Shown here: one piece after another, positions 12,102 to 33,100 of the stretch
How positions within the stretch are numbered: the first letter of the stretch is position 1
Layout: the number at the start of each line of letters is the position of its first letter
Origin: Pseudomonadota bacterium
GTDB lineage: Bacteria; Myxococcota; JACRCW01; JAFGSX01
Direction: 5' to 3'
NCBI GenBank assembly: GCA_043821645.1
Contig: JBDRCO010000013.1
Location: forward strand, 1 to 36,880
Length of the DNA stretch: 36,880 bases
The notes under the pieces: model-generated
The model's database searches: none
Told to the model about the DNA's origin: nothing
Seen by the model: only the letters and a program-made list of their open reading frames with translations
Position numbers and translations under genes: made by a program

Positions 12102-12165
12102 GATCGTTCTCCTCGACGCACGCCAGCGCTCCACCGAGGAGCCAGCAGGTCGTGCCGCGGCGCCC

Positions 12166-12183
12166 AGGGGCTCGCAAGCCCCT
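12166..12183. other. Short hairpin between rpmB and rpmG
   Basis: AGGGGCT-CGCA-AGCCCCT, a perfect 7-bp stem with no U-tract. Confidence 0.4.
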
Positions 12184-12190
12184 CAAAGGC

Positions 12191-12415
12191 TTACTTAATG
12201 AGCCCGTGTTTCCTGAGCGTCTCGCGAAGGTCCGCCTTGGTCAGGGTTCGGATCGCTCGCGTGCTCACCTTGAGCCGGATCCAGCGCCCCTCTTCGGGGA
12301 TGAAGAATCGCTTGCTCTGGATGTTGGGCCTGGTCACCCGCTTGGTTCGATTGTTCGCATGGGACACCTTGTTGCCCACCATGCGCTGCTTGCCGGTCAG
12401 ACTGCATTTTGCCAT
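12191..12415 (-). CDS. rpmB: 50S ribosomal protein L28
   Basis: CSLTGK...GNKVSHANNRTKR...PNIQSKRFF...LKVSTRAIRT. Adjacent to rpmG. Confidence 0.97.
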   Translation of the reverse strand: MAKCSLTGKQRMVGNKVSHANNRTKRVTRPNIQSKRFFIPEEGRWIRLKVSTRAIRTLTKADLRETLRKHGLIK

Positions 12416-12511
12416 GACGCCACCTAATCGCAGGCCAGCCCTCCGGGGCAGGCTCAGGAGGGCGGGTCATCCCATGCTGATGGTGGGCTGTCAACGAGAA
12501 ATCACGAATCA

Positions 12512-13767: not shown

Positions 13768-14472
13768 TCAGATCTCGCTGCCCGGAGTCGGGCGCGAGGT
13801 CGTGTCATAGGCGGCGTGCAAACCGAAAGTGTGCTTGCCACCGGCGAAGGGAGGCAGGGGAGAGTAGGTGTCCTTCTTGGGACCCACGAAGCCCATCTCT
13901 CGCAGCACCGAGCCCACGGGCTTGCGCTGGTACTCCACGCCCTTGCCGGCCTTGAAGGGCACGTAGGGCTTCTTGGGGTCGGCCACGAAGCGGGCCACCA
14001 GGTTCTCGAGATACTGGCTGGTGGCCTCGAACTCAGGGGTGTGGGCGATGGCACCGGTGGGGCAGGGGTCGACACACAGCCCGCAGAACATGCACTTGCC
14101 AATATCGATGTCGAAGCGGGTCATGACACGCTTGCGCTCGTCGGCCACCTTCTCCACGGCCATGGAGATGACGTCGATGGGGCAGGCGCGTTCACAGGCC
14201 TGACAGGCCGTGCAGATGTCCATGTCGACTTCGAGGATGCCCCGGTAGCAGATGGGTAGCTTCTGGCCGATGTCGACGCGCTCGAGGTCCTTCATCAGCG
14301 AGTTCAGGCGCCCGTCGTATCGATCTGGATACTGGATGGTCCCGGGCTTGCGCAGCATCCACGACATGGTCACGGCCATGCCCTCGCCGACGGCCCTGAG
14401 CGCGGACCAGATCGAGGCCACATAGCGGGTCAGGGCGCCTCTGTCGTCGGCAACCTGAGTTGAACTGGTCAT
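13768..14472 (-). CDS. nuoI: NADH-quinone oxidoreductase subunit I
   Basis: TIQYPD, YRG and two 4Fe-4S motifs (CTACQACERACP, CMFCGLCVDPCP). Follows nuoH. GAGGAG RBS. Confidence 0.93.
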   Translation of the reverse strand: MTSSTQVADDRGALTRYVASIWSALRAVGEGMAVTMSWMLRKPGTIQYPDRYDGRLNSLMKDLERVDIGQKLPICYRGILEVDMDICTACQACERACPIDVISMAVEKVADERKRVMTRFDIDIGKCMFCGLCVDPCPTGAIAHTPEFEATSQYLENLVARFVADPKKPYVPFKAGKGVEYQRKPVGSVLREMGFVGPKKDTYSPLPPFAGGKHTFGLHAAYDTTSRPTPGSEI

Positions 14473-14500: not shown

Positions 14501-15799
14501 CTACAGCGCGAACTTGATGAGCACCTTGTCGCGGGCGTTGGTGATGGCGAATGCGACGCGCCGGACGTACCAGACGAAGGCCCCCAGGCAGAAGGCGAAG
14601 GTGCCCAGCCTGAGCAGCATACCCACGACCTCGCCGACTCCGGCATGCTGGAACAGGGCCGCGGTGTCCGACATCGGCAGCCAGTGCATGAGAACCATGA
14701 TCGCCAGCATGGCGACGAAGGACAGGGGTACCAGCACCTTCCAGCACACCGACATCATCTGGTCGACGCGGATGCGCGGCAGGGTCCAGCGGAGCTGGCT
14801 GATCACGAACACCACGACCCAGGTCTTGACGAAGATGACGACGAAGGACATGGCGGTGAGCGTCCAGAAGGCCCAGGTGTCGAGGCCCAGCGTGCTCAGC
14901 ACGCCCGGCGTGGCCGTGGCGTACCAGGGCAACCCCTCGACCAGGCCAAAGGTGGGGATGTTGCCACCGCCCAGGAAGGCGACGACGGCGAGCACGGCCA
15001 TGATCCAGACGTTGGCCAGCTCGGCCAGGTAGAAGAGCAAGAAGCGCCAGCCCGAATACTCGGTGGTGTAGCCGGCCACCAGCTCGCTCTCGGCCTCGGG
15101 CAGGTCGAAGGGCACGCGCGAGCCTTCCGCCAGGGCTGCGATGAAGTAGATGACAAAGGCCATCAGGGCAAAGGGGCTGTGCGTCGCGAACCAGTCCCAG
15201 GGCAGCCAGCCCTGGGCCGTGGCCAGACCATTGATGCTCATGGTGCCGGCCAGCATGACGACGACGAGCAGGGCGGTGGCGTGGGGGATCTCGTAGCTCA
15301 CGATCTGGGCCGCCGAGCGCAGGCCGCCGAACAGCGACCACTTGGAATTGCTGGCCCAGCCCGACATCAGGACGCCGCAGACCACCAGCGAGGTCACGCT
15401 GAGCAGGAACAGCAACCCCACGTCGAGATCGGCGCCGATGAGCGTGCCACCGAAGGGCACCACCGCGATGCCGAGAACGATGCCCAGCACCGCAAGCAGG
15501 GGACCGATCTTGAACAGGGGGTGGTCCGCATCGGCGGGGATCAGGTCCTCCTTGAAGAGCACCTTGAGCGCGTCGGCGACCCACTGGATCAAGCCCTGGG
15601 GCCCGACCCGGTTGGGGCCAATGCGGCTCTGCATGCGGCCCGCGATGCGGCGCTCGAGAAAGATGAACACACCGGCAAACACCAGCACGTAGGCAAAGGG
15701 GATGAGGATGGCTGCCAGGGCACCGGCCGCGTACATCCACTGCGTCCAGGCCGGGCCCACGCCCCACTGCTGCATCAAGCTATCGACGACGGATTGCAT
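14501..15799 (-). CDS. nuoH: NADH-quinone oxidoreductase subunit H
   Basis: ERRIAGRMQSRIGPNRVGP, SNSKWSLFGGLRSAAQIVSYE, RVPFDLPEAESELVAGYTTEYSG, RWTLPRIRVDQ. Confidence 0.96.
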   Translation of the reverse strand: MQSVVDSLMQQWGVGPAWTQWMYAAGALAAILIPFAYVLVFAGVFIFLERRIAGRMQSRIGPNRVGPQGLIQWVADALKVLFKEDLIPADADHPLFKIGPLLAVLGIVLGIAVVPFGGTLIGADLDVGLLFLLSVTSLVVCGVLMSGWASNSKWSLFGGLRSAAQIVSYEIPHATALLVVVMLAGTMSINGLATAQGWLPWDWFATHSPFALMAFVIYFIAALAEGSRVPFDLPEAESELVAGYTTEYSGWRFLLFYLAELANVWIMAVLAVVAFLGGGNIPTFGLVEGLPWYATATPGVLSTLGLDTWAFWTLTAMSFVVIFVKTWVVVFVISQLRWTLPRIRVDQMMSVCWKVLVPLSFVAMLAIMVLMHWLPMSDTAALFQHAGVGEVVGMLLRLGTFAFCLGAFVWYVRRVAFAITNARDKVLIKFAL

Positions 15800-15839
15800 C
15801 GCGAGACCCTCGTCCTGTGACCCCACCCGAGACTGCGCC

Positions 15840-15868
15840 GGTATAACCGGTCTCGACGACGCGGGCAA
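15840..15868 (-). promoter_or_regulatory. Putative promoter of nuoH-nuoI
   Basis: Minus strand TTGCCC-N17-TATACC, ending 40 nt before ATG 15799. Confidence 0.45.
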
Positions 15869-16355: not shown

Positions 16356-19208
16356 TTAGTGGGGTCGACGGCGTAGCCCGAACAGGGTGACCAGGCCGAG
16401 GGCCCACAGCACCGCCGGCTGCGGTGAGCCGCGCCCCGCCTGGGCACACAGCAGCGTCGCCTCGTGGCCCGGTTCGTCGACGTGGGGCATGCGGTCGGTG
16501 GGCGAGGGCAGGGCACAGCTCTCGTCCGTCTCGCCATCGCAGTTGTTGTCGACGTCGTCACCGCAGACCTCGGTGGCGGCAGGGGACCTCGCCGGATCCC
16601 TGTCATCGCAATCGAGCTGCGTGCAGAACCCATCCTTGTCCACGTCGAGGCAGGCCGCGCAGCCCTCATCGACCTGGCCATCGCAGCTGTTGTCCAGGGC
16701 ATCGCCACACAGCTCGGCCGCGCCGGGGTAGGTGTCCGCCCGCCCGTCATCGCAATCGAGTGCTGCGCAGAAACCATCGGCATCGCCGTCGACACAGCCC
16801 TCGCAGCCCTCGTCCACATCTCCATCGCAGTCGTTGTCGGCCTGGTCCCCGCAGCGCTCAGCCTGGCCGGGGTTGACGGCGGCGTCGTGGTCGTCGCAGT
16901 CGCGGTTGGCACAGAACCCGTCCTCGTCCTCGTCGGTGCAGGACACGCAGTCCTCGTCCACGTCACCGTCGCAGTCGTTGTCGACATGGTCCCCGCACTG
17001 TTCCGCGGCACCCGGGTTGGCGCTGGCATCCTGATCGTCACAGTCGCGATTGCTGCAGAACCCATCCTGGTCATCATCGGTGCAAAACACGCAGCCTTCG
17101 CCTACCTGACCATCGCAGTTGTTGTCGAGCTCGTCGTCGCAGCGCTCCACGGCACCGGGATGCACCGCTGCACGGGAATCGTCGCAATCCACATCCGAGC
17201 AGAACCCATCCTGGTCCACGTCGATGCAGACCACACAGCCCTCGTCGACCTGGCTGTTGCAGTTGTTGTCCCGGCCGTCGCCACAGACCTCGGTCAGGCC
17301 CGGTCTGACGTCGGAGCGGCTGTCGTCGCAGTCCTCGGTGCTGCAGCTCCCGTCGCCGTCTGCGTCGATGCAGACCACGCAGCCCTCGTCGATCTGGCGG
17401 TTGCAGTTGTTGTCGCGACCGTCGCCACAGACCTCGGCCAGGCCCGGCTTGACGTCGGAGCGGCTGTCGTCGCAGTCCTCGGTGCTGCAGCTCCCATCGC
17501 CGTCGGCGTCGATGCAGACCACACAACCCTCGTCGATCTGGTTGTTGCAGTTGTTGTCACGGCTGTCGCCACAGACCTCGGTCAGGCCCGGCCTGACGTC
17601 GGAGCGGCTGTCGTCGCAGTCCTCGGTGCTGCAGCTTCCGTCGCCGTCGGCGTCGATGCAGGTTACGCAGCCCTCGTCGATCTGGCCGTTGCAGTTGTTG
17701 TCGATGCCGTCGTTGCACAGCTCGGCCGCGCCCGGATAGCGGCGTGCGTCCAGATCATTGCAGTCGGCGCTGGCGCAGGCCCCGTCCTGATCCTGGTCCG
17801 TGCACAGGCACACACCGGCGCCCTGCAGTTCAGGAATGCGCTGGGTATCGCACAGCGCGTCGGCGGCACAGTCCGACTGGCCCAGGCACAGGGGCTTGCA
17901 CTGGCCGGTGGCACCTCCAGCCGGGCCGACACAGAACAGGCCATCCGCGCATTCGACCGGCTCCCGGGGCCCCAGTCTGCAGCTCGCCCCTTCCGCGTGG
18001 CTGAGGCTGGCAAAACAATCCGTGGCGCCCGTTGCGGTGGGACCGCAGGCCAGAGTCGAGGCGCACTCTCCGCCTCTGAGGTCGCAGTTGGCGGGAGGCA
18101 TGCAGAGATCGATGGCAGAAGCACACTGGGTCCCGATGCAGGTCTGGTAGGCCTGGGTCGTGCTCGCGGAGGCGCACTCGGTGTCAAAACACCGCAGCAT
18201 GGCATCGAGGGCGGCCTGGGCGTCGCTGGTGCCGGTGTCGTAGCAGTCGAGCTGACAGGTCGCGCTATCATCGCAGGCGACGAGGCAGTCGTAGACCTGC
18301 TCGCAGTCGTGGGTCTGGCAGGCGCTGTTGTCGCAGCTTCCGTCGCCCTGGCAGGCCTGGGTGCAGAAGCACAGACCCGGGTCGCTCTGGCAGCTCGGTG
18401 GCACCTGCCCCAGCACGCCGGCGATCCAGGGCGCGTGGCGATCCACCCGGGTGTGGTTGTAGCTGCCCTTGCAGGGATCACCTCCGGACGAGGCCACGCT
18501 CGAGTTGATGCCGATGACACGCCATGTGCCGTTCTCTTGCAGCAAGCCCGGGCCGCCGGAGTCGCCAAAGCAGACGCCGGTCCCCGAGAAGTTGCCGACG
18601 TAGACCGAGCTGCCGATGCTGGAGACCAGGATCTGGGTCGAGCGCTTGAGGCCACCGCCGGTGACGTTGATGCCCTCGGTGGCGCCGAAGCCCACGTAGA
18701 GCACCGGGTGACCGACCAGGGCCGCGCTCAGCGACTGCTGGTTGTAGGCGTAGATCGGTGCACCCTGCACGGCCTGGGCGAGGCGCACCATGGCGATGTC
18801 GTTGCGCAGGTTCTCGCTGTCCCACTGCGGGTGGCGGTGGAAGCTCTGGACCGGCACCAGGGTGCCGCTGGCCGGTGGACCGCCGTCGGCGGCGGGTCGC
18901 GCGTCCGGGCCAAGGTAGAAGCGCACCGTCGACGGGTCGAGCAGGCCGCCCGCCTCGTCCTCGACGCAATGGGCTGCGGTCAGTACCCAGCGCGGGTCGA
19001 TGAGGGAGCCCGTGCAGAAGGAACCCTCGTAGCCCCAGAAAGGAACCTGGGCGACCAGGGCGCCCACGCCATTCCAGCCGCTCTCGACCACGCCACCGAC
19101 GATGGGGTGCCGCTGCGAGGGGTCCTGGACCTCGATCGCGTCTCGCGGTGTACAGGCCACCAGCAGCGCCGCCACCAGAACTCCGCTCCCTCTCGTCCCA
19201 AGGCGCAT
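16356..19208 (-). CDS. Surface S1 (trypsin-fold) serine protease with Cys-rich region, nine Asp/Cys metal-binding-type repeats and MYXO-CTERM-like tail
   Basis: Lipobox-like LLVAC, IVGG, WVLTAAHC, NDIAMV, CFGDSGGP. C-terminus LLCAQAGRG...WALGLVTLFGLRRR. Alternative start at 19232. Confidence 0.9.
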   Translation of the reverse strand: MRLGTRGSGVLVAALLVACTPRDAIEVQDPSQRHPIVGGVVESGWNGVGALVAQVPFWGYEGSFCTGSLIDPRWVLTAAHCVEDEAGGLLDPSTVRFYLGPDARPAADGGPPASGTLVPVQSFHRHPQWDSENLRNDIAMVRLAQAVQGAPIYAYNQQSLSAALVGHPVLYVGFGATEGINVTGGGLKRSTQILVSSIGSSVYVGNFSGTGVCFGDSGGPGLLQENGTWRVIGINSSVASSGGDPCKGSYNHTRVDRHAPWIAGVLGQVPPSCQSDPGLCFCTQACQGDGSCDNSACQTHDCEQVYDCLVACDDSATCQLDCYDTGTSDAQAALDAMLRCFDTECASASTTQAYQTCIGTQCASAIDLCMPPANCDLRGGECASTLACGPTATGATDCFASLSHAEGASCRLGPREPVECADGLFCVGPAGGATGQCKPLCLGQSDCAADALCDTQRIPELQGAGVCLCTDQDQDGACASADCNDLDARRYPGAAELCNDGIDNNCNGQIDEGCVTCIDADGDGSCSTEDCDDSRSDVRPGLTEVCGDSRDNNCNNQIDEGCVVCIDADGDGSCSTEDCDDSRSDVKPGLAEVCGDGRDNNCNRQIDEGCVVCIDADGDGSCSTEDCDDSRSDVRPGLTEVCGDGRDNNCNSQVDEGCVVCIDVDQDGFCSDVDCDDSRAAVHPGAVERCDDELDNNCDGQVGEGCVFCTDDDQDGFCSNRDCDDQDASANPGAAEQCGDHVDNDCDGDVDEDCVSCTDEDEDGFCANRDCDDHDAAVNPGQAERCGDQADNDCDGDVDEGCEGCVDGDADGFCAALDCDDGRADTYPGAAELCGDALDNSCDGQVDEGCAACLDVDKDGFCTQLDCDDRDPARSPAATEVCGDDVDNNCDGETDESCALPSPTDRMPHVDEPGHEATLLCAQAGRGSPQPAVLWALGLVTLFGLRRRPH
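16515..17810 (-). repeat. Nine tandem 144-nt (48-aa) coding repeats, D-x-D-x-DG...DCDD...PG..E.C.D..DNNC.G.VDEGC (MopE-like putative metal-binding motif)
   Basis: TTGCAGTTGTTGTC recurs at 17257, 17401, 17545 and 17689 (period 144). Units 2-4 are nearly identical. Confidence 0.92.
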
Positions 19209-19374
19209 CTCGTTCTCACTTTCCGTCGCCATCGCGACCCGGGAATCTCTATCCCTTGCGTGGCTACTTGGGAGACGCCGCTGGTCAGAAAATGTCGCAT
19301 TGTGACGACGGGCACAGGGCTACGGTGCCTGGCCGTGCGCTCCATCACGACCCGTTCGGAATTCGGACACAGGA

Positions 19375-19441: not shown

Positions 19442-21166
19442 TCAGTGCAGGGTGACCATGCGCCACCACTGCGACAGCTCGCGCAGCTGGCGCGCCCGGG
19501 GGGCCACGCAGTCGTACTTGGAATGGTGAATCAGCACCATGTCCCCGCTGGCCAGCCCCGAGGTGTCACAGGGCGGATCCAGGTCGTAGGGGCGCACCTC
19601 GATGGGCGAGAAGTAGAAGTAGACGCTGGGCTGATAGTACAGGGGGACGTTCCAGCGTTGCCTGTCCACGATCAGGTAGGGGATCGGATCCTTCTCCCAG
19701 GCGGCAGCGTACTCGGCGAAGGTATCCGGCGGCTGCGGCGCCCACACGCGCCGGGCGCTGCGGTCGAGGCCAGCTCCCAGCATCCACATCACGGCACCCA
19801 GTGCGAGACCACGGCCGGCCAGCATCAGCAGACCATGCGCACGCACCAGCTCGGCTGCCGGGAGCACCTGCAGCAGCCATCGATGGAGCCCCTGCGCGCA
19901 CAGCAGACCGGCCAGCGCAACCAGGAACCACCAATGAAGGTGTTTGGCGTCGTCGTGGAGGATGCACAGCGCCGCTGCCACCAGCGGGATGCCCAGCAGG
20001 CCCAGGTGGCGCTCGCCCCGGCCCAGCCAGCGCCCGAGCACGATGCCAGGACCCAGGGCAAATAAAGGAAAGATGGGGATCATGTACCAGGAGCGGTGCT
20101 TGTCCGCGATCTCGCCGAACACCAGCAGGTGGCTGGCCAGGAGCGCCGTGCAGGCAAGCAGGAGAAACCGTCTCGTCTCCGCCGAGGGTGCGCCGAGGAT
20201 GAGGCGTGCGGTGCGCTGCCACCGCGTCGAGGGCGGCGGGACCTCGTCTGTCGCCAGGCTTGCGGGCTGCACCAGCGCCAGGGTCAGCAGCGCCAGCAGA
20301 CACAGACTGCCCACGACCACGAGCCAGGGCTCGCCGAAGCGCAAGAAGGTCTGCCACAGATCGTCAACCTTGCGCGGCACGTGAGGATCGGCCGCGAGCT
20401 TGGCCGGGATCTGGTGCAACGCTGCTCCGACACCTCGGTCGAGGGTGAAGGGCACCATCCACAGGCCGAAGAACGCCAGGGCTACGACGATCGTGACACC
20501 GAAGCGCCGCCACAGCCGGCGAGGAGAGACCAGCAGCGTCGGATCCAGGGTCAGCTCCGCCACCACGACTGCACCCAGCGAAGCGAAGCCGACCATGTGC
20601 TTGACCCATGCACCGTAGCCGACCACCAGCCCCAGGAGGACCTGCAGGATGCGCTCTGTGCGAGGGTCAGATTCGTCGCGGGTGCGGCTGGCAAGCCACA
20701 GCGCGAGAAGGAAGACCGCGGTCAGGGTGTTCTCGAGCCAGATCACGCGGCCGAGCTCGATCCAACCTCCGATGGTCAGGGCCAGCAGGCCCGTCAGCAG
20801 GCCTGCCAGCGACGAGCTCGCGATGATCGAGGCCAGGAGCGCGAGCAGCACCGTCGAGGCGATACCGGCGAGAATGGTGGGCAGGCGCACGGCCGCCTTG
20901 CCGCGTCCAAAGATCTTCAGCGACAGTGCCGCCGGCCACAGGGCTCCAGGGGGCTTGCCCAGGGTGCGGTAGTGACTGAACTCACCGCGGGGGTAGAGAG
21001 GATTGTCACCCCGGGACAGCTCGAGCGCCGCCGCTGCGTACAGCGCCTCGTCGCTCTTGACGAGGGTGGGATCGGCGTAGCCACGGCCGAAGAACCACGT
21101 CGCCGCCAGCAGCACGATTCCGAGCGCCGCCGGTCGTGCCAGCGCGCGGGACGCCGACAGGTTCAT
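19442..21166 (-). CDS. ArnT/PMT-like GT-C membrane glycosyltransferase
   Basis: SDEALYAAAA, GKPPGALW, FGRGKAAVRLP and WYMIPIFPLFAL motifs. Polytopic. Starts 3 nt after the nuoD stop. Confidence 0.82.
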   Translation of the reverse strand: MNLSASRALARPAALGIVLLAATWFFGRGYADPTLVKSDEALYAAAALELSRGDNPLYPRGEFSHYRTLGKPPGALWPAALSLKIFGRGKAAVRLPTILAGIASTVLLALLASIIASSSLAGLLTGLLALTIGGWIELGRVIWLENTLTAVFLLALWLASRTRDESDPRTERILQVLLGLVVGYGAWVKHMVGFASLGAVVVAELTLDPTLLVSPRRLWRRFGVTIVVALAFFGLWMVPFTLDRGVGAALHQIPAKLAADPHVPRKVDDLWQTFLRFGEPWLVVVGSLCLLALLTLALVQPASLATDEVPPPSTRWQRTARLILGAPSAETRRFLLLACTALLASHLLVFGEIADKHRSWYMIPIFPLFALGPGIVLGRWLGRGERHLGLLGIPLVAAALCILHDDAKHLHWWFLVALAGLLCAQGLHRWLLQVLPAAELVRAHGLLMLAGRGLALGAVMWMLGAGLDRSARRVWAPQPPDTFAEYAAAWEKDPIPYLIVDRQRWNVPLYYQPSVYFYFSPIEVRPYDLDPPCDTSGLASGDMVLIHHSKYDCVAPRARQLRELSQWWRMVTLH

Positions 21167-21169: not shown

Positions 21170-22315
21170 CTAGCGGTCGACCTCAGGGGCCACCACGTCG
21201 AGGGACGCGATGAGAGCGACCAGGTCCGCGATCATCAGGCGCGGTGACAGGTGTTCCATGATCGACATGGCCGAGAAGCTGCCGGTGCGGATGCGTGCGC
21301 GCTGGGGCTTGTCGGTCCCGTCGGAGACCAGGTAAAAGCCCATCTCGCCACGGGCGCTCTCGACCCGGGCATAGGTCTCGCCCACCGCGGGCTTGAGCTT
21401 CTTGGGGACCTTGGCCCGGACGTCGCCCTCGGGCAAGCCCTCGATGCACTGCCGCACGATCTTGATCGACTCGCGGATCTCCTCGACGCGCGCGTAAAAC
21501 CGCGCGTAGCAGTCGCCCTCGATGCCATGCGGCCCCTTGCCCACGGGAACCTTGAACTGCAGCTCGGGATAGGCCGAGTACGGAACGTCGCGGCGCAGGT
21601 CGAAGTCCACGCCGCTGGCGCGCAGGTTGGGGCCCACGAGCGCGTAGCCGATGGCGTCCTGGCGCGAGATGGGCGCCACGCCGGCGAGGCGATCGATGTA
21701 GATGGGGTTGAAGGAGATGAGCCGGTCGAACTCGTCGATGATGGGCTCGAGGTGATACAGCCAGCTCAGGATGCTGCGATCGAGGCCGGGGTAGAAGTCG
21801 CGAGACACGCCGCCGACCCATACGTAGTTGTAGGTCAGGCGCGCACCGCAGATGTACTCCATGATGTCGTTGAAGGTCTCGCGTTCGCGAATGAGCATCA
21901 AAAACGGCGTGTAGGCGCCAATGTCCATCGCCATGGAACCCGCGGCGATGAAGTGGCTGGCGATGCGCGTGAGCTCGGTGGCGATGGTGCGCAGGTACTG
22001 CGCCCGTCGTGGCACCTCGATGCCCAGCAGGTTCTCCACCGCCATGGCCCAGCCCTGGTTGGGGAACATGGCCGCGCAGTAGTCGATGCGATCGGTGTAG
22101 GGCATGAAGCCCAGGTAGCCGACCTTCTCGGCGATGCCCTCCATGGCCCGGTGCAGGTAGCCCACCTCGGGCACCGCGCGGCTGATGACCTCGCCGTCGG
22201 TCTCCACCAGGAAGTTGAGGACGCCGTGCGTCGCCGGGTGGTGCGGTCCCATGTTGAGGACCATGAGCCCGTCCTTGGGCTGCTTCCACGACGCGACAAA
22301 GGGATATTGTTCCAT
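21170..22315 (-). CDS. nuoD: NADH-quinone oxidoreductase subunit D
   Basis: [55 protein letters not shown]. Lacks the NiFe-binding CxxC motifs of hydrogenase large subunits. Confidence 0.95.
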
Positions 22316-22346
22316 GGCGGGCCCTCGCAGTTCTGTGACGGGTGGC

Positions 22347-23387
22347 TCAGCTCGCGCTGGTCGTGCCCTCGGCCGCTGGGGTGGTCGTGGCCTGTGCCGG
22401 AGTCTCGGCAATGATCTCCCCTGCGGACAGGGCGCCGCTGCGGATCTGCTCGACGATGACCGCGGCCAGATCGTCCGGATCCTTGCGGGGTCGGCTTCGG
22501 ATCACGGCGCCGCTGGCGATGATCCGGCCGTGCTTGCGGCGCACGCGGGCATCGAGGTCGCGGATGGCCGCGCCGGGGTTCGAGGTGTAGACCACGTACA
22601 GGGCGCAGGCCTTGTGCTCGAGGTCAGGCAGCAGGTCGATGAACGAGCCCATGGCCTCCGAGGTGCTCGCGAAGAGCAGCCCGTGGGCATTGGCGCCAAA
22701 GATCAGCAGGTCGTAGTCCTCGAGCTGGCTTGGCTTGGCCTGGCTCACTGCCACGACCTCGACCGCTATGCTGGCCACCGCCAGACGATGGGTCAGGATC
22801 TCACCGGCCTCCCGGGCGCCCTTGCCGCTGTCGTCGAACACCAGCAAGGCCCTGAGGGGCCGCTGGGTCTTGAGCAACTCGGTGCGCTCGCTGAACAGGG
22901 TGTTGCTGAAGGTGCGCGTCGTCTTCATTCCGTGGTACTCGGCGGGCTCCTGCCAGTCCTTGCGCAGGGGGTGGCCCGGCCAGTCCTCGGGGAGCATCAG
23001 GCGCCGCAGCTCGCGGTGGTTGTTGAAGACCACTCCGAGCAGGTCGTACTGCTCGCGCTCGTGCCATTCGGCGGCGGGCCATACCGCGCTGACAGTGTCG
23101 ACGGCCGGATTGTCGTGCGGGATATCTGTCTTGAGCACCAGCAGGTGGTGGTGCGTGTACGAGTACAGGTGGTAGGTCATCTCGAAGCGCTCGGGCGGCA
23201 CGTCGGCGGCGGTCAGGCAGGACAGGTTGTCCAGGGCGATGCTGTCGGCATCGCGCAGCCAGGTGGCGACCACGACCAGGCGCGCGGGCTGGACCCGGAT
23301 CCAGGTCTGGGCCTTGTCGTTCTTGACCTCGACGACGGCGTCCCCGAACTGCTGCTGCACCTTGCTGGCAATCTCGTCGAAGGTCAT
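22347..23387 (-). CDS. nuoC: NADH-quinone oxidoreductase subunit C fused to a C-terminal flavodoxin-like domain
   Basis: N-half: [40 protein letters not shown]-half: LRALLVF..., [29 protein letters not shown] overlap with nuoA. Confidence 0.9.
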
Positions 23388-23812
23388 GGGGCAGTCCTTT
23401 CTGCGGCACCGGCCTGGATGTCGCGGTCATCCCACAGCCGCTTGACCCACTCGAGGTCGCCCTTGCGCCACACGTAGGCCAGGCCCACCAGCAGGATCAG
23501 GACAAACAGCGCCAGCTCCACCATGGCCACGGCCCACTGCGGCGATGCCATCCAGGACCTGTAGACCACGCCGATGGGGAAGGTGAAGGCGATCTCGACG
23601 TCGAAGACCACGAACACCAGGGCCACGATGTAGAAGCGCGGATTGAAGTTGAACCAGGCACCCCCGACGGGAACCTCGCCGCACTCGTACACCATTGCCT
23701 TGCCAGGGGTGTAGCGCCGCGGCGCCAGGAAGCGCTGCGCGGCGAGTCCCCCGAACACGACCACACAGGCCAGAACGGCCAGCACCAGGACCACGGTAAA
23801 GTGAAAACCCAT
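23384..23812 (-). CDS. nuoA: NADH-quinone oxidoreductase subunit A (copy 1)
   Basis: YECGEVP, RFYIVALVFVVFDVE, LAYVWRKGDLEW. Confidence 0.94.
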   Translation of the reverse strand: MGFHFTVVLVLAVLACVVVFGGLAAQRFLAPRRYTPGKAMVYECGEVPVGGAWFNFNPRFYIVALVFVVFDVEIAFTFPIGVVYRSWMASPQWAVAMVELALFVLILLVGLAYVWRKGDLEWVKRLWDDRDIQAGAAERTAP

Positions 23813-23869
23813 GACGGAGACTCCACCCTGTCGCCGCGCCGCGGCGCTCATATAAATGGCTGCCGCAAT

Positions 23870-23898: not shown

Positions 23899-24049
23899 GG
23901 CGATTGGGGCGAGCTCAGGACCTCGCACGCGTTCCCGGGAGCAGCGCATCAGGAGGCCTCCGCGGCGTGGCGTTCTCGCTCGCGCGCCACGAGAGTCCAC
24001 GCTATGACCGCCGACGCCAGACGCATGGGTGCGTGGGGCAGGGGAGCAG

Positions 24050-26506
24050 GTGGTCGAGATCCGCCGATACCTGTCGCGGTGCTGGGAATACACCTCCGGG
24101 GCTGCCCGACGCGGGCCCGGGGTGCTGGTCCTGACCGCCGTTGCCACGGCACTCGCGCTGGTCTTCTACAGGCCCTATGGCGAGACCTTCGGCACCAAGC
24201 TGGTGACCGGGCACGTCGATGCCTACTTCGTGCTGTGGGGCGTCGACTGGGTGCAGCGGCAGTGCTTTGGCCTGTGCGGCCCCCTGTTTGACAGCAACGT
24301 CTACTTCCCGCACCGCTTCAGCCTGCTGCACGCGGACCCCATGATTGGCCAGGCCCTGGTGACCCTGCCCCTGCGCTGGCTCGACGCCGGACCCGCCGCC
24401 ACTTTCAACACGCTGCAACTGCTGGGGCTGGTGAGTGCGGGTGTCGCCATGGCATTGCTGGCCGCCGAGCTCACCGGGCACCGATGGTCTGCCCTGGTGG
24501 CGCTGGTGGTGTTCGGCTTCTTCCCGGCGCGGGCCGCGGCCGTGACCAATGCGCTGTCGCAGTACAGCTTCGGCTTGCCCCTCATGCTGTGGGCTCTCGT
24601 ATCCTGGACGCGTCGCGGCCGGTCCTGGTCCATCTGGGCCTGCGGCGGAGCCTTCGTGCTGCAGGCCTGGTTCTCGACCCAGATGGCGCTGTGGACCGCT
24701 CTGGGCTTCGTCGTCACGGCACCCTGGATCCTGCTCGGGGGTCAGGCCTGGCGCACCCGGCAGCAGCTGCGGCAGCTCGGCCTGGCGATGATCGTCTGGT
24801 TGGTGATCCTGGCGCCGCTCGTCGTGGGCTACCTGCGCATGGGCCACGATCTTGGCTTCACCCGTTCGATGCGCGAGACCGTGGCCTACTCGGGCAGCAC
24901 CGACGCGCTGTGGAACGAGCGCGGCATGTTGCAGAACGACCCCTGGTTGCAGGGAGAGGCCAGCAAGGGCGGCGGGCACCTGGGCTTGCTGCTGTGCGCG
25001 CTGGCGGCGGCGGGCTGTGCCGTGTTGCTGTGGCGGCGCGCGCGAGGTGACCGCGCGGCCCTGTGGCAGCACCTGCTGCCGGGCCTGCTGCTGCTCGCCC
25101 TCGGCGTCATCGTCTACCTGGGGCCAACCGACAAGTCCCACGGCGATAGCAGGGCGCTGTTCTGGTACGTGCGCGAGCTGGTGCCGGGCTTCAAGGGCGT
25201 GCGCGTTCCTGCCCGGGGCTTGATGCTGGCCTACGTCGGGCTGGCGCTGCTGGCCGCCGAGGGCGCGCGTGGCCTGTTCGCATGGGCGCGCTGGCCCGGG
25301 GTCCGACCCCTGGCCGCCGTGAGCCTGGCCGCGGCGCTGTTCTGGTTCTGGCTACCGCGACCCCAGAACCCTGTCATGCCGAGCGTGATCACCGACGCTG
25401 CCGTCGTCATGCGGGACCTGCCGGCCGGCGCCGTGGTCTTGCCCTGGCCAAGTTTTCGCCACTACCACGACGGGGCGCTGCGGGACTACGAGGCCACTGC
25501 CCACGACAAGCACATCGTGGGCGGCTACACCGGGATCTTCACCTGGCTGTATCGCCAGTGCTTTCTCGAACTGGATCAGTTTCCCGGTGGGCGCTCGCTC
25601 GAGGTGGCCGCGGCGCTGGGGACCACGCACCTGGTGCTGGACAGCCGCCGACTCGACGGCAAGAGAAGAGACGCGCTCGGGCGGGCTCTGTCCGACGGCC
25701 GCGTGCAAGGTCCCGTGCTGACGCGCGGCCCCTTCGAGGCCTACGTGCTGGTTCGAGGCGAGCTGCGGCAATTCGGGGCGCACGATCTGCATGCCCTGGC
25801 GCCCCTGAGCGCCCTGGCCGAGCAGCACGTCGAGGCGGGGAGCTGGGCCACCAGCGCGCTGCAGCTCCCGGCGGACTTCGCAGCCCAGCTCAGGATCAAT
25901 CCGACCCAGACCTGGAAGGGTCGCGTGCGTCTGGCGTGCCCCCACGGCCGCGACGATGCAGATGCGGTGGTCGCCGCGCCACCCATCGTCGACGACGAGC
26001 ACCGGCTGGTGTCCTTCAGCTACCGGGCCCCCGCCCAGCCCGGGGTCTGCGATGCCATCTTCGAGCTGCAGGGCACGGCTCTCGGCACCGGGCGTGTCGA
26101 CGTGGTGGCTGCCGGTCCGGGCACACCCCGGGCCGAGATCGAGATCCTGGATGCGCCGGCGTCGACCTGGGCGGACTGCGGCGTGCGGCTCCACCTTCGC
26201 ATCCGCAACACAGGCCCGGTGGTGCTCCGCGCGCGCTCCGACGTCGGCTGGCCTCCCTTCAAGGGGGAGTTTCAGGTCGAGTGCCGCTTCACGGGTCCGG
26301 CGAGTGAGACCCTGCGTGTGGTCTCCGAATGGGGCGACGGCGCGCTGCACGCGGATCTCGGCCCGGGGGACAGGAGCGAACGCACGCTGCGCATCCGGGC
26401 ACCGCGCAAGGGCGGGCACTACAAGCTGCAATGCAAACCGGTGCTGGCCTACACCTCGTTCATCGGCGATGGCAGCCCGGTGCGGGAGATCGACGTGGTG
26501 CCCTGA
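24050..26506 (+). CDS. Polytopic GT-C/YfhO-like membrane protein with C-terminal extracellular Ig-like domains
   Basis: GGGGAG before GTG 24050. Motifs FDSNVYFPH, LVPGFKGVRVPAR, IVGGYTG. C-terminal LRIRNTG...DLGPG...IRAPRKGGHYKL Ig-like domain. Confidence 0.7.
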   Translation: MVEIRRYLSRCWEYTSGAARRGPGVLVLTAVATALALVFYRPYGETFGTKLVTGHVDAYFVLWGVDWVQRQCFGLCGPLFDSNVYFPHRFSLLHADPMIGQALVTLPLRWLDAGPAATFNTLQLLGLVSAGVAMALLAAELTGHRWSALVALVVFGFFPARAAAVTNALSQYSFGLPLMLWALVSWTRRGRSWSIWACGGAFVLQAWFSTQMALWTALGFVVTAPWILLGGQAWRTRQQLRQLGLAMIVWLVILAPLVVGYLRMGHDLGFTRSMRETVAYSGSTDALWNERGMLQNDPWLQGEASKGGGHLGLLLCALAAAGCAVLLWRRARGDRAALWQHLLPGLLLLALGVIVYLGPTDKSHGDSRALFWYVRELVPGFKGVRVPARGLMLAYVGLALLAAEGARGLFAWARWPGVRPLAAVSLAAALFWFWLPRPQNPVMPSVITDAAVVMRDLPAGAVVLPWPSFRHYHDGALRDYEATAHDKHIVGGYTGIFTWLYRQCFLELDQFPGGRSLEVAAALGTTHLVLDSRRLDGKRRDALGRALSDGRVQGPVLTRGPFEAYVLVRGELRQFGAHDLHALAPLSALAEQHVEAGSWATSALQLPADFAAQLRINPTQTWKGRVRLACPHGRDDADAVVAAPPIVDDEHRLVSFSYRAPAQPGVCDAIFELQGTALGTGRVDVVAAGPGTPRAEIEILDAPASTWADCGVRLHLRIRNTGPVVLRARSDVGWPPFKGEFQVECRFTGPASETLRVVSEWGDGALHADLGPGDRSERTLRIRAPRKGGHYKLQCKPVLAYTSFIGDGSPVREIDVVP

Positions 26507-26546
26507 GGTCTTGACGCCCCGCGCGTCGAGACACAGCGGATGGGTC

Positions 26547-26575
26547 TTGCCCTTCGCCGCGGTCACGCCTATATC
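26547..26575 (+). promoter_or_regulatory. Putative promoter of nuoA-nuoB
   Basis: TTGCCC-N17-TATATC, overlapping TATCAT, ending about 48 nt before ATG 26624. Confidence 0.45.
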
Positions 26576-26623
26576 ATGCGTGGACTGGCGGGCGCGGATC
26601 GCGTCCCGCCCGAGGACAGTGCC

Positions 26624-26980
26624 ATGCTCGCTTCGTACTCCGGTCTCGCCCTGATGGCCCTCATCGGCGTGTTTCTGGCCCTGGTGTTCCTGGCGGGTTC
26701 CATGTTCCTGGGCCCCAAGGACGCGTCGGGCAGCAAGGAAGAGCCCTGGGAGTGCGGCACCGTGTCCGTCGGCAGCGTGCGCCAGCGTTTCAGCGTGCGC
26801 TTTTACATCGTGGCCCTGCTGTTCGTGGTGTTCGACATCGAGGCGGTGTTCCTCTTCCCCTGGGCCGTGCTGTATCGCGAGCTGGGATGGTTCGGCCTGG
26901 CCGAGATGTCGGTCTTCGTCGCCATCCTGCTGGTGGGGCTTGGCTACGTGTGGAAGAAGGGCGCCCTGGAGTGGGAGTGA
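26624..26980 (+). CDS. nuoA: NADH-quinone oxidoreductase subunit A (copy 2)
   Basis: GAGGA RBS. PWECG, FSVRFYIVALLFVVFDIE, YVWKKGALEW. Confidence 0.94.
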   Translation: MLASYSGLALMALIGVFLALVFLAGSMFLGPKDASGSKEEPWECGTVSVGSVRQRFSVRFYIVALLFVVFDIEAVFLFPWAVLYRELGWFGLAEMSVFVAILLVGLGYVWKKGALEWE

Positions 26981-26986
26981 TCCGAG

Positions 26987-27523
<537 letters not shown>

Positions 27524-28805: not shown

Positions 28806-29942
28806 TCAGTCGCCCGCCGAGCCCAGCATCTCGGACCCCTCGACGCCGGAGATGTAGGCGTCCAGGATGTTGTAGGCCCACACCGCAGCGGTGGCCCCGA
28901 GCAACACATGGCCGACCACGAACTGGGTCTGGGCCAGCTGGTAGCGGCCCTGCAGGTTCTGCTGGAACTTGTCCGAGCCCGCGGTCAGGTTGTCGTCCTC
29001 GGGCTTGTAGGGCGTGTAGTAAAGCAGGTGCGTGAGCAGGCCTGCGGTCTCGAAGCCGACGCCGCCGAGCAGCAACGCCCCGGTCACACCCGTGAAGACC
29101 CAGCCCTTGGTCGCTTCCTGGTTGTAGTGCTGACCCCAGCCTGGCAGGACGGCGGAACGAAAGGCTGCATCGGCCTTGCTCCGGAGGACCACGGCATTCG
29201 ACGACAGCGCCACCAGGTCGGCGGCCGGCAGGTCGGTCTCGACCACGCTCACCACGGTGGCGGTCTCGGTCTCCAGCATCTTGGCCGTGACCTTGTAGCG
29301 GTCTCCCAGCAGGGCCACCTGGCCCAGGATGAGCACGTCGGCGTTGGCGATCTTGCCCACCTCGGCAGCCTTGGTCTCGTCGGTGACGCCGGTCTGCTGC
29401 AAGGCCATCTCACCGAGCACAGCATTCAGGCGCGCGCGCTCGACCAGGGCCAGGCGATGATCGCGCAGCAGGGTGGTGGCCAGCACGTCGGTGACGACGA
29501 GGCCCAGACCCTTCTCCTTGCTGTCCGCGTCCACGGCCTCGAAGGGCAGCACCGCGAAGCGCAGGTAGCGCGCGTTCTTGCTCAGCTTGCTGGTGTCCGC
29601 CGCGAGCTGGTCACCCATCTTGCGCAGTCGTAGCTCGACATCGCGCGGTTCCGCCTCCGTGGTGCTTGTCTCGGCGCGCTCGGGTGTCGCCGGAGCGGGT
29701 TCCGCAGCCGCCGGGGCTGGCGCGGCAACCACGGGCGCGGGAGTGGAATCCTCCGGAGCGACGAGAGGCGGTGCGTCCTCGATGGGCGTCGCTGCGGGTT
29801 CCGTGGCCTTCGGCTTCTTCTTTGCGGCGGCCTTCTTGGCCGCGGCGACCCAGGACGACGCGCCCGCGACGCATTCCACCGGCAAGGACGCCGGACAGGA
29901 CAGGGCCAGTGTCAGCACCAGCGATTCAATCATCGTGTTCAC
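28806..29942 (-). CDS. Exported CsgG/FlgO/TolB-N-like domain protein with C-terminal DUF5683-like membrane segment
   Basis: AVLPFE...LVERARLNAVLGEMALQQTG...VGKIANADVLILG (CsgG/FlgO-like). FRSAVLPGWGQHYN (DUF5683-like). Pro/Ala linker. Confidence 0.78.
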   Translation of the reverse strand: MNTMIESLVLTLALSCPASLPVECVAGASSWVAAAKKAAAKKKPKATEPAATPIEDAPPLVAPEDSTPAPVVAAPAPAAAEPAPATPERAETSTTEAEPRDVELRLRKMGDQLAADTSKLSKNARYLRFAVLPFEAVDADSKEKGLGLVVTDVLATTLLRDHRLALVERARLNAVLGEMALQQTGVTDETKAAEVGKIANADVLILGQVALLGDRYKVTAKMLETETATVVSVVETDLPAADLVALSSNAVVLRSKADAAFRSAVLPGWGQHYNQEATKGWVFTGVTGALLLGGVGFETAGLLTHLLYYTPYKPEDDNLTAGSDKFQQNLQGRYQLAQTQFVVGHVLLGATAAVWAYNILDAYISGVEGSEMLGSAGD

Positions 29943-30164
29943 CCCACTTGCGATGAGAACCGACTATGAGCCTACAACAGGTTGCCCTGTCAAGCTGGCT
30001 GGCGCGCGCCGAAGGGCTCCACAGTGTGTCCGTTCCGCACTCACAGCTTCACCCCTCTGGACGGGAGGAGTTGTGCGGGCCGGCACGAGCCCGAGGCTTC
30101 TGCGAGGTGGGCGCTGCTCGTGTTGCGTGCTAGTGTCCGCCCATTCATCGAGGGGACGCGAATC

Positions 30165-33100
30165 ATGAAACGCACGTCGTTGTTGCTCCAGGCGCTCGTC
30201 TGCTCTCTGGTCCTTACCCTGGCAGCCTGTCAGGACTACTTACCTGCCAATCCCTACGACCCCAATGCGCGCCCGGACGAACAAAAGCGAGGCGAGATCC
30301 TGGGCACCCTCGAATTCGACCTGCGCGCCGGTATGTCCGAAATCCTGCGTGGCATCCGCGTTGGCGTCCTGGGCAACACCGGCGGAGAGGTCGCGACCGT
30401 GTGCAGCGAGGCCGCCACACCCGATGTCGAGGTGACCTGCGTCGATCTGGACAGGCAGGTACGCTTCCGTTTCGGGGAGCTGCCCACTGACGAGTATATC
30501 CTGACTGTCGACGGGGTACCGCCTGACTACCTTCCGGCCTCCGTCCCTCGCGTGACGCTTGCTCCTGGCGAAGTCCAGGACCTTGGTGTGTTGCGCTACC
30601 GGGCCTTCGACATCCCATCGGGGACCCAGGAGCACTGGACTGGCCGGGTGCTCGGGCAGGCCCAGCTCGCGGACGGTGAGGGGGGCGCCGCGCGGGTCCG
30701 ACTCTATGTGCGGTCCAGCACCGGCCTCGGCCTTTATGACGAGACCCTCGCCGACGAGGCGGGTGCCTTTGGCTTCGACGGCATTCCCCCCGGAACTTTC
30801 GCCGTGGCCGCCGACCTGGACGGCTACACGCCGGACTACAGGGCTGGTTTCGAGATCCAGGGACCGTCGGTCGCGGTGGAACAGAACACGCAGTCCTTCA
30901 CGGGTAGCCAGTCCCTGATCCTGTACCCCGTGACCGCGGTGCTCATTCCTGCGCTGCAGCAAACCTTGGGGCACTACTACACGCGCGAGAACAGCGCGCC
31001 GGTGCAGGTGCTGCAGTTCGGCGGCATGAACCAGATGCGGCTGGCCGCGGAGCCCACCTTCGCCAGCGGAACCCAAACCTGGCTGGACTACAGCGCATCG
31101 ACGGATGTGGCCTTGCCGGACCGAGAGGGAACCCTCGAGATCTACGCGCAGTTCAGGAATACCCAGGTCCCGGGCTTCACCTTTCTTTCGCGCAGCTTCT
31201 CGACGCAGGTGGTTCGCGACATCACAGCTCCCGAAGTCCTCGCCGCGCGGGTGCGCGGTCGCAACCCGGGGGCGCTGGGGAGAGTCTGGCTCGACCAGGA
31301 CGGGGCGCTGCTCAGTGTCGAGATCGACGGTCAGGACACCGTGAGCGCGGTCTACGGCATGGTGCTTTTCCACGACGCCCAGAACAGCGCGGGCGATCCA
31401 CTGGCCCTGAGCTTTGCCCTGGGTGAGTCTCCACCGGGGTTGGTGCGCCTGGACGAGGAACTCGGACTGACCTCGGGCGAGGGCGAGAAGAAGATCTTCG
31501 CATACCTCAAGGATCGAGCGGGCAACGTGGGTGCGCCGGGCGAGGTGGATGTCTGGGTCGATACCACGGCACCGGTGATCGCGGGCCTGGTGCTGGAAGG
31601 TGGTGTCGGCGTGACTGCCGACGCGGAGATCTCGGTGGCGTTGCAGGCCTCGGATGCGAACGGCCTCGTCAGCATGCAGGTGTGGGAAGAGGGCCAGGCT
31701 GTACCGTCGCCGGTCGCGTTCAACGTGAGTTCGACCTTGATCCTGCAGCCACTGGACTACGCGAATGGCAGTCGCCAGGTCAACGCGGTGGTGTTCGACG
31801 TGGCCGGCAATGCCTCGCTGGCGGCCTCGCAGACCATCCTCTTCGATGACCGCGGCAGCATGAGCGGTCTCGTGCAGATCGAGGATGCGGCGAATGGCAG
31901 CGCCGGGGACAGCGCCGGTGTGACGGCGGTGGTCGACGGACAGACCTATCCGGCTCAGTTCACGGCGACCGCGAACCGCGGCGAGTACAGCTTCGTGGTG
32001 GCGACCATCCCGGCGGCGTCCAACCGCCAGCTGGTCCTGCAAAAGGCCGACTACGCCGATGCCCTGGCACGGGCGCCCTTTGCGGTCGTCGCTGGCCGTG
32101 CCACCGACGTGGGCGTGCTGCGGCTGCAACTGGCACGCGGCTCGGTCGAGGGCTTCGCTCTGCTGCAGGGCAAGGACGACCACGCCGGCATCAACGTGAG
32201 CGTGCAAGGCACGAACCTGAGCGCCACCACCAGCGACACAGGTTTCTTCCACATCGACGGCCTCAAGGCCGGGGTGCCCTACATCTTGACCTTCCGGCGC
32301 GACGAAGACTGGACGGTGGAGACCCGGCCCGACGTGGTGGTGCCCGCGGCGACAACCCTGGTCCTGGAGCCGACAGTGGTCCTGGTGCCGCTGGCGGGGA
32401 GCTTTCGCATCGCCGAGGGGGCCTACACGCGTGTCGCTCGGCTGACCCTGCTGATGAGCTACGACGGAGCCACCGAGTATCGGGTCAGCGAGACTCCGGA
32501 CTTCGCCGGGGCCAGCTGGAACAGCTTCTCCAATGCCGTCGGTCCGACGACAGGCTATCCCTTCGACCTCCTGGTCGACGCCACGCATGGAGATGGCCTG
32601 CGCACGATCTGGGTACAGTTTCGCGACCCCGCGCCAGGTACGGGTTTCTTGAGCGATCCCCGCAGTGACGTCATCACCCTGGACAGCCAGGAACCCCAGA
32701 ACCTGTCACTGGCCGTCAACGGTGGCGCAACTTACACCCGCGAGCTGGCGGTGAGCCTGACCTTCGGTGGCACCGATGCCAATCCCATCGAGCAGTACCA
32801 GCTGGCTTACCGCGACTCGACGAGTGCCGGGGATGTCCTGGAATCGGACTGGGAGCAGGCGCGGACCTACACCGGGCAACCCGTCGGAGTGGTGTTGCCC
32901 GGCGCCCTGAGCTTTCGCACCGCGAGGGTGTGGCTCCGCCTGATCGACGCGGCGGGCAACGTGAGCGCGCCGCACCTGGCGAGCATCATCGTAGATCCGG
33001 CGGCGCCGACAGGTGGTCACCTGGTGATCAACAGTGGCGAACAGCTGACCAGCAGCTTCACGGTCACCCTGACGATGACCGCCAGCGATGACAGCGCGAT

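Follow-up and report, generated by a model that had tools for sequence, protein, structure and literature searches.

A flavodoxin-fold domain fused to NuoC in an 11-subunit complex I paralogue of an uncultured groundwater bacterium

We analysed a stretch of DNA of 36,880 nucleotides (nt) from an uncultured groundwater bacterium (the whole of it hereafter called the window; contig JBDRCO010000013.1 of assembly GCA_043821645.1; genome G000, 7.07 Mb, 94.7% complete) and found that one of its genes, here named nuoC*, encodes the complex I subunit NuoC followed in the same open reading frame (ORF) by a domain of about 140 amino acids with the flavodoxin fold. Sequence identities assign NuoC* to a complex I paralogue of 11 subunits which has no N module (NuoEFG) of its own. 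The fused domain has, by comparison with its free relatives, lost the loop which in flavodoxins binds the phosphate of flavin mononucleotide (FMN), and because of this loss it is probably a docking or structural piece rather than a working flavodoxin. For the more specific proposal, that it is an FMN-free docking or capping module, we put the chances at about even.

The nuoC* gene and its occurrence

The gene lies between nuoA' and nuoD on the minus strand and is made up of the following parts:
22347..23387, minus strand: nuoC* (protein P0001), fusion of NuoC and a flavodoxin-like domain, 346 amino acids (ORF, translation and five proteins of the same architecture)
22938..23387, minus strand: residues 1-150, NuoC (30-kDa subunit) domain (PF00329 and Foldseek matches to complex I NuoC chains)
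22857..22937, minus strand: residues 151-177, conserved linker (EYHGMxTTRTFS and a helix; invariant positions in 5/5 sequences)
22440..22856, minus strand: residues 178-316, flavodoxin-fold domain of about 140 amino acids with a degenerate FMN phosphate loop, DDSGKGA, at 185-191 (AlphaFold2, Foldseek and hhalign)
22350..22439, minus strand: residues 317-346, low-complexity tail rich in Pro, Ala and Thr (low model confidence, low identity)

The ATG of nuoC* overlaps the TGA of nuoA' as ATGA, with AAAGGA 8-13 nt upstream of the start, and the frame is open throughout its 346 codons to the TGA at 22349-22347; the ATG of nuoD follows 31 nt further on and is preceded by GAGGG. The N-terminal part matches PF00329 (Complex1_30kDa) at residues 30-147 with 133.8 bits (cut-off 22.5), as well as the NCBIfam models NF008728 and NF009808, and falls slightly under the cut-off of the NCBIfam model NuoC_fam TIGR01961 (117.9 bits, cut-off 122.45). 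When a model of the full-length protein was searched with Foldseek it matched the NuoC chains (chain C) of several solved complex I structures (E of about 1e-11 to 3e-11, probability 1.00); these NuoC chains alone were returned, with no flavodoxin match, and for this reason the C-terminal domain was modelled and searched separately. The extension beyond the NuoC domain comes to about 195 residues. In its linker Y151, G153, M154, T156, R158, T159 and F160 are identical in 5/5 fused sequences, and the predicted local distance difference test score (pLDDT) of this segment is low when NuoC* is modelled alone; at the other end, residues 322-346 of the tail have a pLDDT below 50.

An initial annotation of the window had described a complete NuoC which runs on, without a stop, into about 140 amino acids of flavodoxin-like order between 22856 and 22440, with DDSGKGA in place of the FMN phosphate loop. 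The PF00329 match, the open frame and the motifs which it quoted, all of them present (LRALLVF at 178-184, VEVVAV at 209-214, further segments at 222-231 and 249-267, GAAIRDL and GRII), agree with that description; the interval corresponds exactly to residues 178-316, which form the modelled beta-alpha domain, and the loop reads as it had been given. It had also raised the possibilities of a stop or misjoin between the two domains and of a fusion found in no other genome. There is no break between the domains, as judged from the ATGA coupling, the nuoD start 31 nt after the TGA and an independent contig across the junction, and a search for the same architecture returned four further proteins from other assemblies.

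This search, in which a profile was run against 5.8 billion clusters and 8000 candidates were scored, gave 5 proteins longer than 277 amino acids at E ≤ 1e-3, all of them 341-364 amino acids long, all with PF00329 and each a singleton cluster. Besides the protein of the window they come from two metagenome contigs (L024 and L025), from genome G001 (L020/L026/L043), which is the only other genome of the same family as G000, and from one short contig; the only one of them with a public name is called simply "NADH-quinone oxidoreductase subunit C". Both of the 2 sampled genomes of the order have the domain, as do 2 of 4 from the class, and in the phylum sample 2 of 401 matched strongly. At E ≤ 1e-3 there were matches in 5/401 genomes of the phylum sample, the strong ones in G000 and G001 only and the other three being matches of 20-22 bits in unrelated long frames. 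Pattern scans confirmed 2 of 529 matches in metagenomes and 1 of 21 in genomes (the G001 contig). The surroundings of the gene also recur: in L025 and in the G001 contig a nuoB-nuoA pair is divergent from nuoA'-nuoC*-nuoD-glycosyltransferase, with L025 reaching as far as nuoH, and the window has this gene order with extra genes inserted, while the shorter L024 holds nuoA'-nuoC*-nuoD only.

An independently assembled contig of 604 nt from sequencing run X1 bridges the domain junction (22425-23028) and differs from the window at 1 letter, and identical pieces of the locus were found in runs of other studies. Contigs from runs X1 and X4 which skip 22268-22957 were considered as a variant of this gene and rejected: they carry 205 other letters between the two sides and 7 mismatches in 48, and were attributed to the ordinary nuoC-nuoD of other organisms. 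Amino-acid identity was compared by region in the two closest pairs of fused proteins, each pair from within one subgroup: the flavodoxin-like domain gave 64% in one pair and 63% in the other, the NuoC part 49% and 75%, and the tail (window of residues 321-346) 13% and 37%. Across all five pairs compared, the identity of the tail was 3-37%. The domain is as conserved as the NuoC part. Ratios of non-synonymous to synonymous substitution rates (dN/dS, Nei-Gojobori) calculated per region were about 0.5-1, and about 1 even for the NuoC domain; given the high divergence of the pairs and a GC content of about 0.9 at third codon positions they are uninformative here, and they were set aside in favour of amino-acid identity.

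A misjoin in the assembly, a missed stop or frameshift, or a remnant in neutral decay might be suspected, given that all members come from metagenome assemblies and that the crude dN/dS values are near 0.5-1. However, five separate assemblies have the same unbroken frame and a separate contig spans the junction, the NuoC domain, about which there is no doubt, also has a dN/dS of about 1 by the same method, and the flavodoxin-like domain, with a pLDDT of 89, is far better conserved than the tail. Because of this recurrence, the synteny, the junction-spanning contig and the regional pattern of conservation, an artefact or neutral remnant is very unlikely, to the point that we regard this explanation as already close to refuted. 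The domain is folded and maintained.

Fold, ancestry and flavin site of the fused domain

Modelled alone with AlphaFold2, the domain forms five strands and five helices in five beta-alpha units, with a pLDDT of 89.3 and a predicted template modelling score (pTM) of 0.86. Foldseek searches of the PDB with this model gave 369 matches at E ≤ 1e-3, with template modelling (TM) scores of 0.62-0.77 by query and up to 0.80 by target; the matches listed were flavodoxins of D. vulgaris, C. beijerinckii and M. elsdenii, flavodoxin-tagged constructs and receptors, flavodoxin domains of flavodiiron proteins and one FMN protein. In the ESM Atlas the domain reached TM scores of 0.81-0.88 to Flavodoxin_3 clusters. 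Sequence searches were less direct. A Pfam scan of residues 160-346 returned no family, and hence no flavodoxin family, at E ≤ 1, and the domain scores under the cut-off of every curated flavodoxin model, with NCBIfam flavodoxin matches below threshold (TIGR01753, E 3.6e-5, 24.3 bits against a cut-off of 123). Searched with phmmer against PDB sequences the domain matched flavodoxins only (E 0.012-1.3), and a profile of four fused domains gave 29 matches at E ≤ 1, of which 28 were flavodoxins or flavodoxin-tagged constructs, the best being Megasphaera elsdenii 2fz5 (E 4e-4).

In an exhaustive search of 1.84 billion representatives, 10 proteins matched at E ≤ 1e-3. Only one cluster other than that of the window's protein reached E ≤ 1e-10 (P0002, a second NuoC fusion); the weaker matches were five small proteins of 140-183 amino acids, one Fe-S and flavin adenine dinucleotide (FAD) protein of 758 amino acids, and P0003, P0005 and P0008. 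In a Pfam scan of the first six of these weaker matches, the five small relatives carried Flavodoxin_1, Flavodoxin_3 or Flavodoxin_5 and the 758-amino-acid Fe-S/FAD protein Flavodoxin_3 only, below threshold. When the fused domains were compared by hhalign with the five small free flavodoxin-family proteins, homology was detected over 141 columns with 99.4% probability (E 1.3e-21). Relatives of the same flavodoxin subfamily are fused to Fe-S and FAD redox proteins (P0007 and several ESM Atlas rows). The C-terminal 140 or so amino acids of NuoC*, having both the fold and detectable homology, are therefore a flavodoxin-fold domain of flavodoxin ancestry, and the model confidence, the Foldseek matches and the hhalign result together bear out the flavodoxin-like domain of the initial annotation. 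A CheY-like receiver domain, which the letters LLVFDD might suggest, was rejected: the acceptor position at the end of strand 3 is an invariant Gly231 with no Asp, Pfam gave no Response_reg match in the domain at E ≤ 1, and the Foldseek rows listed were flavodoxin-fold proteins and not receivers.

With the short-chain flavodoxins of Flavodoxin_3 and Flavodoxin_1 (PF12641 and PF00258) the domain has in common the five-strand alpha/beta fold, sequence homology and core Asp, Gly, Pro, Leu and Ala positions. It differs from free flavodoxins in being covalently part of a subunit of a membrane complex and in the residues around the flavin. Flavodoxins bind the phosphate of FMN in a loop after strand 1 which reads S/T-x-T/S-G-x-T. 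In the five free relatives this loop reads Y-(E/D)-S-x-x-G-x-T, whereas in the fused proteins it reads FDDSGKGA in 2/5 and, two residues shorter, HD--G(K/E)(R/E)T in 3/5; the FMN phosphate loop is thus absent in 5/5, and the indel of two residues separates two subgroups. Asp185 is invariant in the fused proteins where flavodoxins have Ser or Thr. The free relatives have 18 invariant columns, and only 6 of these are unchanged throughout the four fused domains compared (D226, G231, G236, P254, L256 and A262), all in the core or in turns and none in the loops of the flavin site, and none of the 4 invariant positions of the phosphate loop is among them. The Cys-Thr pair of strand 4 has been lost together with the Pro and Thr of the following loop. 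In flavodoxins the isoalloxazine ring is flanked by aromatic or Met residues of the 50s and 90s loops. Where the clostridial and Megasphaera proteins have a flavin-stacking Trp, the aligned residue of the fused domains is Ser, Ala, Thr or Gly; it should be noted that such residues also vary among true flavodoxins. The net charge of the domain is about neutral (-2 to +2), and classical flavodoxins are strongly acidic. Taken at the level of aligned residues, the fused domain has lost both the FMN phosphate-binding loop and the residues near the flavin site which do not vary among its free relatives.

The host enzyme and the possible role of the domain

The initial annotation had noted that nuoEFG were missing from the window and might lie elsewhere in the genome. 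G000 has two complex I-type copies each of NuoC, NuoD and NuoH, two NuoA (both in the window), two complex I-type NuoB and two NuoJKLMN sets, and set against these a single NuoG and a single nuo-type NuoE-NuoF pair, which lie with, or match, the canonical set; the sole nuoG stands between canonical nuoD and nuoH in a nuoC-D-G-H cluster on contig C58. No second N-module set was found in this 94.7% complete genome, where a further copy could be unassembled. In G236 (locus L053), a relative whose operons are compact, a nuoABCDHIJKLMN operon without nuoEFG is divergent from a canonical nuoABCD... cluster, and we assigned the subunits of G000 by their tblastn identity to one or the other. The complex I genes of the window are:
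23384..23851, minus strand: nuoA' of the 11-subunit type (PF00507; ATGA overlap with nuoC*)
21170..22315, minus strand: nuoD of the 11-subunit type, 381 amino acids, ATG at 22315 (PF00346; 81-83% identity among four loci)
14501..15868, minus strand: nuoH of the 11-subunit type, for which the true start may be internal (PF00146, 347.6 bits)
13768..14472, minus strand: nuoI of the 11-subunit type, 234 amino acids, two CxxCxxCxxxCP motifs (Fer4 families; 71% identity to the L025 copy at 11793-12473)
26540..27523, plus strand: divergent nuoA-nuoB of the canonical complex I, not part of the same enzyme (PF00507 and PF01058; nearer to canonical than to EFG-less G236, NuoA 49% vs 38%, NuoB 64% vs 49%)

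The identities to G236 were as follows:
NuoA' (window): EFG-less operon 50%, canonical cluster 38%
NuoC* (window): EFG-less operon 45%, canonical cluster 33%
NuoD (window): EFG-less operon 62%, canonical cluster 39%
NuoH (window): EFG-less operon 51%, no match in the part of the canonical cluster compared
NuoI (window): EFG-less operon 51%, no match in the part of the canonical cluster compared
NuoB (contig C87): EFG-less operon 69%, canonical cluster 48%

For NuoJ to NuoN, where the queries were taken from the EFG-less operon only, all five matched genes of contig C94 at 45-57%; the set on C70 matched at 33-40% in NuoJ, NuoM and NuoN and at 50% in a partial NuoL, and NuoK matched only C94. 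The plus-strand nuoA-nuoB pair and the C58 nuoC-D-G-H cluster group with the canonical cluster of G236. Since these identities favour the EFG-less operon, NuoC* belongs to an 11-subunit complex I paralogue (NuoA'BC*DHIJKLMN) which is complete, though its genes are scattered, and which lacks an N module of its own. This set is spread over the three contigs C13, C87 and C94, and the canonical set lies on C58, C72 and probably C70. On inspection of the translations NuoD keeps HPATHG and PYTDRIDY, which we take to be quinone-site motifs, and NuoI keeps two CxxCxxCxxxCP, presumably cluster motifs; the NuoB of the window shows the CC...C...CP cluster motif as well, but is of the canonical type. The NuoI of the 11-subunit set also has a conserved C-terminal extension of about 70 amino acids and an insertion before the first cluster motif. 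The only two nuoA genes of G000 are divergent in the window, and seem to be what is left of a pair of nuo operons set back to back, as found intact in G236.

Some NuoC match was present in 358 of the 401 genomes of the phylum sample. The closest non-fused NuoC orthologues do not exceed 53% identity to NuoC* in partial matches, or 49% where the match is nearly full-length, and the three which were examined (L045, L048 and L050, in G236, G271 and G298) have the linker, the helix and a long low-complexity tail rich in Pro and Ala or in Ala; the flavodoxin domain was therefore inserted into an existing C-terminal extension. This extension of non-fused 11-subunit-type NuoC in other families of the phylum is itself undescribed.

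We propose that in one family-level lineage of uncultured bacteria a domain derived from a small flavodoxin was captured into the NuoC of an enzyme without an N module, probably between the C-terminal linker helix and the Pro/Ala-rich tail which non-fused orthologues already have. The captured domain would then have lost its flavin site, would no longer carry FMN, and may have been retained for a structural or docking role, tethered on top of the Q module (NuoC, NuoD and NuoI) at its cytoplasmic side. There it could cover the surface which NuoG covers in the canonical enzyme, or it could recruit a soluble donor (ferredoxin or a dehydrogenase) to the first cluster of NuoI. Cyanobacterial NDH-1 has ferredoxin-docking accessory subunits, and by analogy a docking role would resemble that of these small subunits.

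Several points weigh against this proposal. The absence of FMN is inferred from sequence, and the Gly and basic residues at the N-terminus of helix 1 are kept in every variant of the loop (SGKGAR, GKRTQR and GEETRR). Arg/Ser loops hold the phosphate in other FMN proteins of flavodoxin fold, and the retained basic loop could do the same. Because flavin-contacting residues vary between flavodoxin families, a mismatch with five distant relatives at these positions is no more than suggestive. Where the domain sits in the complex is purely a matter of inference. The two domains have no defined orientation to each other in the full-length model (pTM 0.47, residues 116-173 of low confidence), and a complex prediction of the flavodoxin-like domain with NuoD, NuoI and residues 1-169 of NuoC gave a score of 0.00, which is evidence neither way. 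It should also be noted that there are only 5 sequences, all from metagenomes.

The initial annotation had offered an alternative electron input or a regulatory module as the function of the domain, with the caveat that FMN binding might be lost and that the domain might serve for docking or regulation. The caveat is now the better supported part: electron input as it was stated requires FMN, and its phosphate loop is absent in all 5 proteins and varies in length. An input module would in that case have to be a non-canonical FMN-binding flavodoxin which works as a built-in one-electron entry to the NuoI clusters in place of NuoEFG, fed by low-potential donors such as 2-oxoacid:ferredoxin oxidoreductases or a flavodoxin reductase. 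The flavodoxin ancestry and intact fold, the attachment to exactly the complex I paralogue without its own N module, the Fe-S and FAD redox fusions among subfamily relatives and the Gly and basic residues kept in the loop would all fit such a module, and a flavodoxin-using complex I is known from C. jejuni, as cited in the available text of PMC4453560 and PMC11238625. We nevertheless think it unlikely, though by no means negligible, in view of a loop which is without its Ser and Thr residues and differs by two residues between the subgroups, an invariant Asp185 at the Ser/Thr position, no conserved aromatic at the aligned stacking position, no Pfam flavodoxin match at E ≤ 1 with 24 bits against 123 for TIGR01753, and a net charge about neutral where classical flavodoxins are strongly acidic.

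Two further loci of G000 were recorded. On contig C23 (L032) a NuoE and a NuoF-like protein of 637 amino acids are encoded beside 2-oxoacid:ferredoxin oxidoreductase genes, a possible low-potential electron source, and contig C45 (L029) encodes a membrane complex resembling group 4 hydrogenases or Mbx, with NuoB/C/D-like, NuoH-like and antiporter-like genes.

A second alternative would remove the link to a different donor altogether: the single NuoEFG could be common to both sets of Q and P modules, and the domain could act in assembly, stability or regulation, perhaps by determining whether the N module is selected or excluded. The genome has two full sets of the other 11 subunits but a single nuoEF and a single nuoG, and sharing of this kind has been proposed for Syntrophobacter fumaroxidans in the available text of PMC4453560. 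However, nuoG lies inside the canonical nuoC-D-G-H cluster, relatives with compact operons have nuoABCDHIJKLMN without EFG beside a separate canonical cluster, and at 94.7% completeness a second N module could have gone unassembled, so that we consider a shared NuoEFG rather improbable.

Neighbouring genes, known systems and significance

The remaining genes of the window include one between nuoD and nuoH which belongs to the recurring gene order of the locus:
19442..21166, minus strand: membrane glycosyltransferase of GT-C/PMT_2 type, ArnT-like (PF13231 and PF02366)

The same glycosyltransferase is found at the same place in L025 (6790-8451) and L043 (4471-6156), and thus in all three loci which reach that far. 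Between it and nuoH lies a gene (16356-19232, minus strand) for a secreted trypsin-like protease of 958 amino acids with nine MopE-type putative metal-binding repeats (PF11617, 310 bits), a position which in L025 is taken by a different gene without a Pfam family. A multi-pass membrane protein of 825 amino acids (24029-26506, plus strand) with a weak match to DUF6044 (E 1e-3) is encoded between the two divergent nuoA genes, and is not at the same spot in G001 and L025. The window also holds a giant ORF of at least 2299 amino acids (29982-36878, plus strand), with CarboxypepD_reg and Big_13 domains, which continues past the end of the window; upstream of it is a CsgG/FlgO/DUF5683-like lipoprotein gene (28806-29942, minus strand), which in L025 and G001 is likewise a neighbour of the nuo locus. 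Two short ORFs (11937-12415, minus strand) which come immediately downstream of nuoH-nuoI resemble ribosomal proteins L33 and L28 by eye, and a class III (c3-type) multihaem cytochrome gene (9540-11751, minus strand; PF02085) overlaps the end of a gene for a major facilitator superfamily transporter.

By sequence, fold and the position of its gene between nuoA and nuoD, NuoC* is in its N-terminal 150 amino acids a member of the NuoC/Nqo5/NDUFS3/NdhJ family (30-kDa subunit, PF00329). It differs from ordinary NuoC, which in the same genome has 163 amino acids, by the roughly 195 extra C-terminal residues with their flavodoxin-fold domain. That the C-terminus of NuoC tolerates covalent extension is also apparent from the NuoCD and NuoBCD fusions (E. 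coli-type NUO13 and deltaproteobacterial NUO12), as described in the available text of PMC4758237. Unlike in these fusions, the partner in NuoC* is a domain from a foreign soluble protein and not a neighbouring core subunit, and nuoD remains a separate gene. The initial annotation had known of no NuoC-flavodoxin fusion, and none turned up in our full-text literature searches, with the limit that the supplements of PMC4758237 and PMC4453560 could list unusual NuoC architectures. NuoC* is a new and very rare form of a known subunit, represented by 5 sequences from one uncultured lineage.

In being a paralogue without nuoEFG, the host enzyme of NuoC* resembles Nuo11, cyanobacterial NDH-1, the C. 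jejuni complex I (which was reportedly found to be flavodoxin-dependent by Weerakoon and Olson in 2008) and Fpo with FpoF. In all of these the input or docking function resides on separate proteins, whereas in NuoC* the domain is fused and apparently without a flavin site. Ferredoxin, flavodoxin or added input proteins are the presumed electron sources of such enzymes (PMC12361115, PMC11238625 and PMC4453560), and for the bacterial 11-subunit complex I-like enzymes the electron donor and its docking site are still described as open questions (PMC11238625 and PMC4453560), in each case as far as the available text of these papers goes.

Should the domain bind flavin after all through its non-canonical basic loop, which we regard as a minor possibility but one worth stating, the 11-subunit complex I would be a self-contained, flavodoxin-headed quinone reductase; it would then be the first case in which a redox input domain is joined to NuoC of the Q module, and would mark where low-potential donors feed a complex I without an N module. 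As a putative docking or structural piece, the domain would be an example of a cofactor protein which complex I has taken over as an accessory domain and which has apparently been deprived of its cofactor site. At about 150 amino acids the domain is small and expressible, and a flavodoxin-derived domain on NuoC, be it a live redox carrier or a fossil turned adaptor, would in either case be a natural marker for a binding place on top of the Q module.

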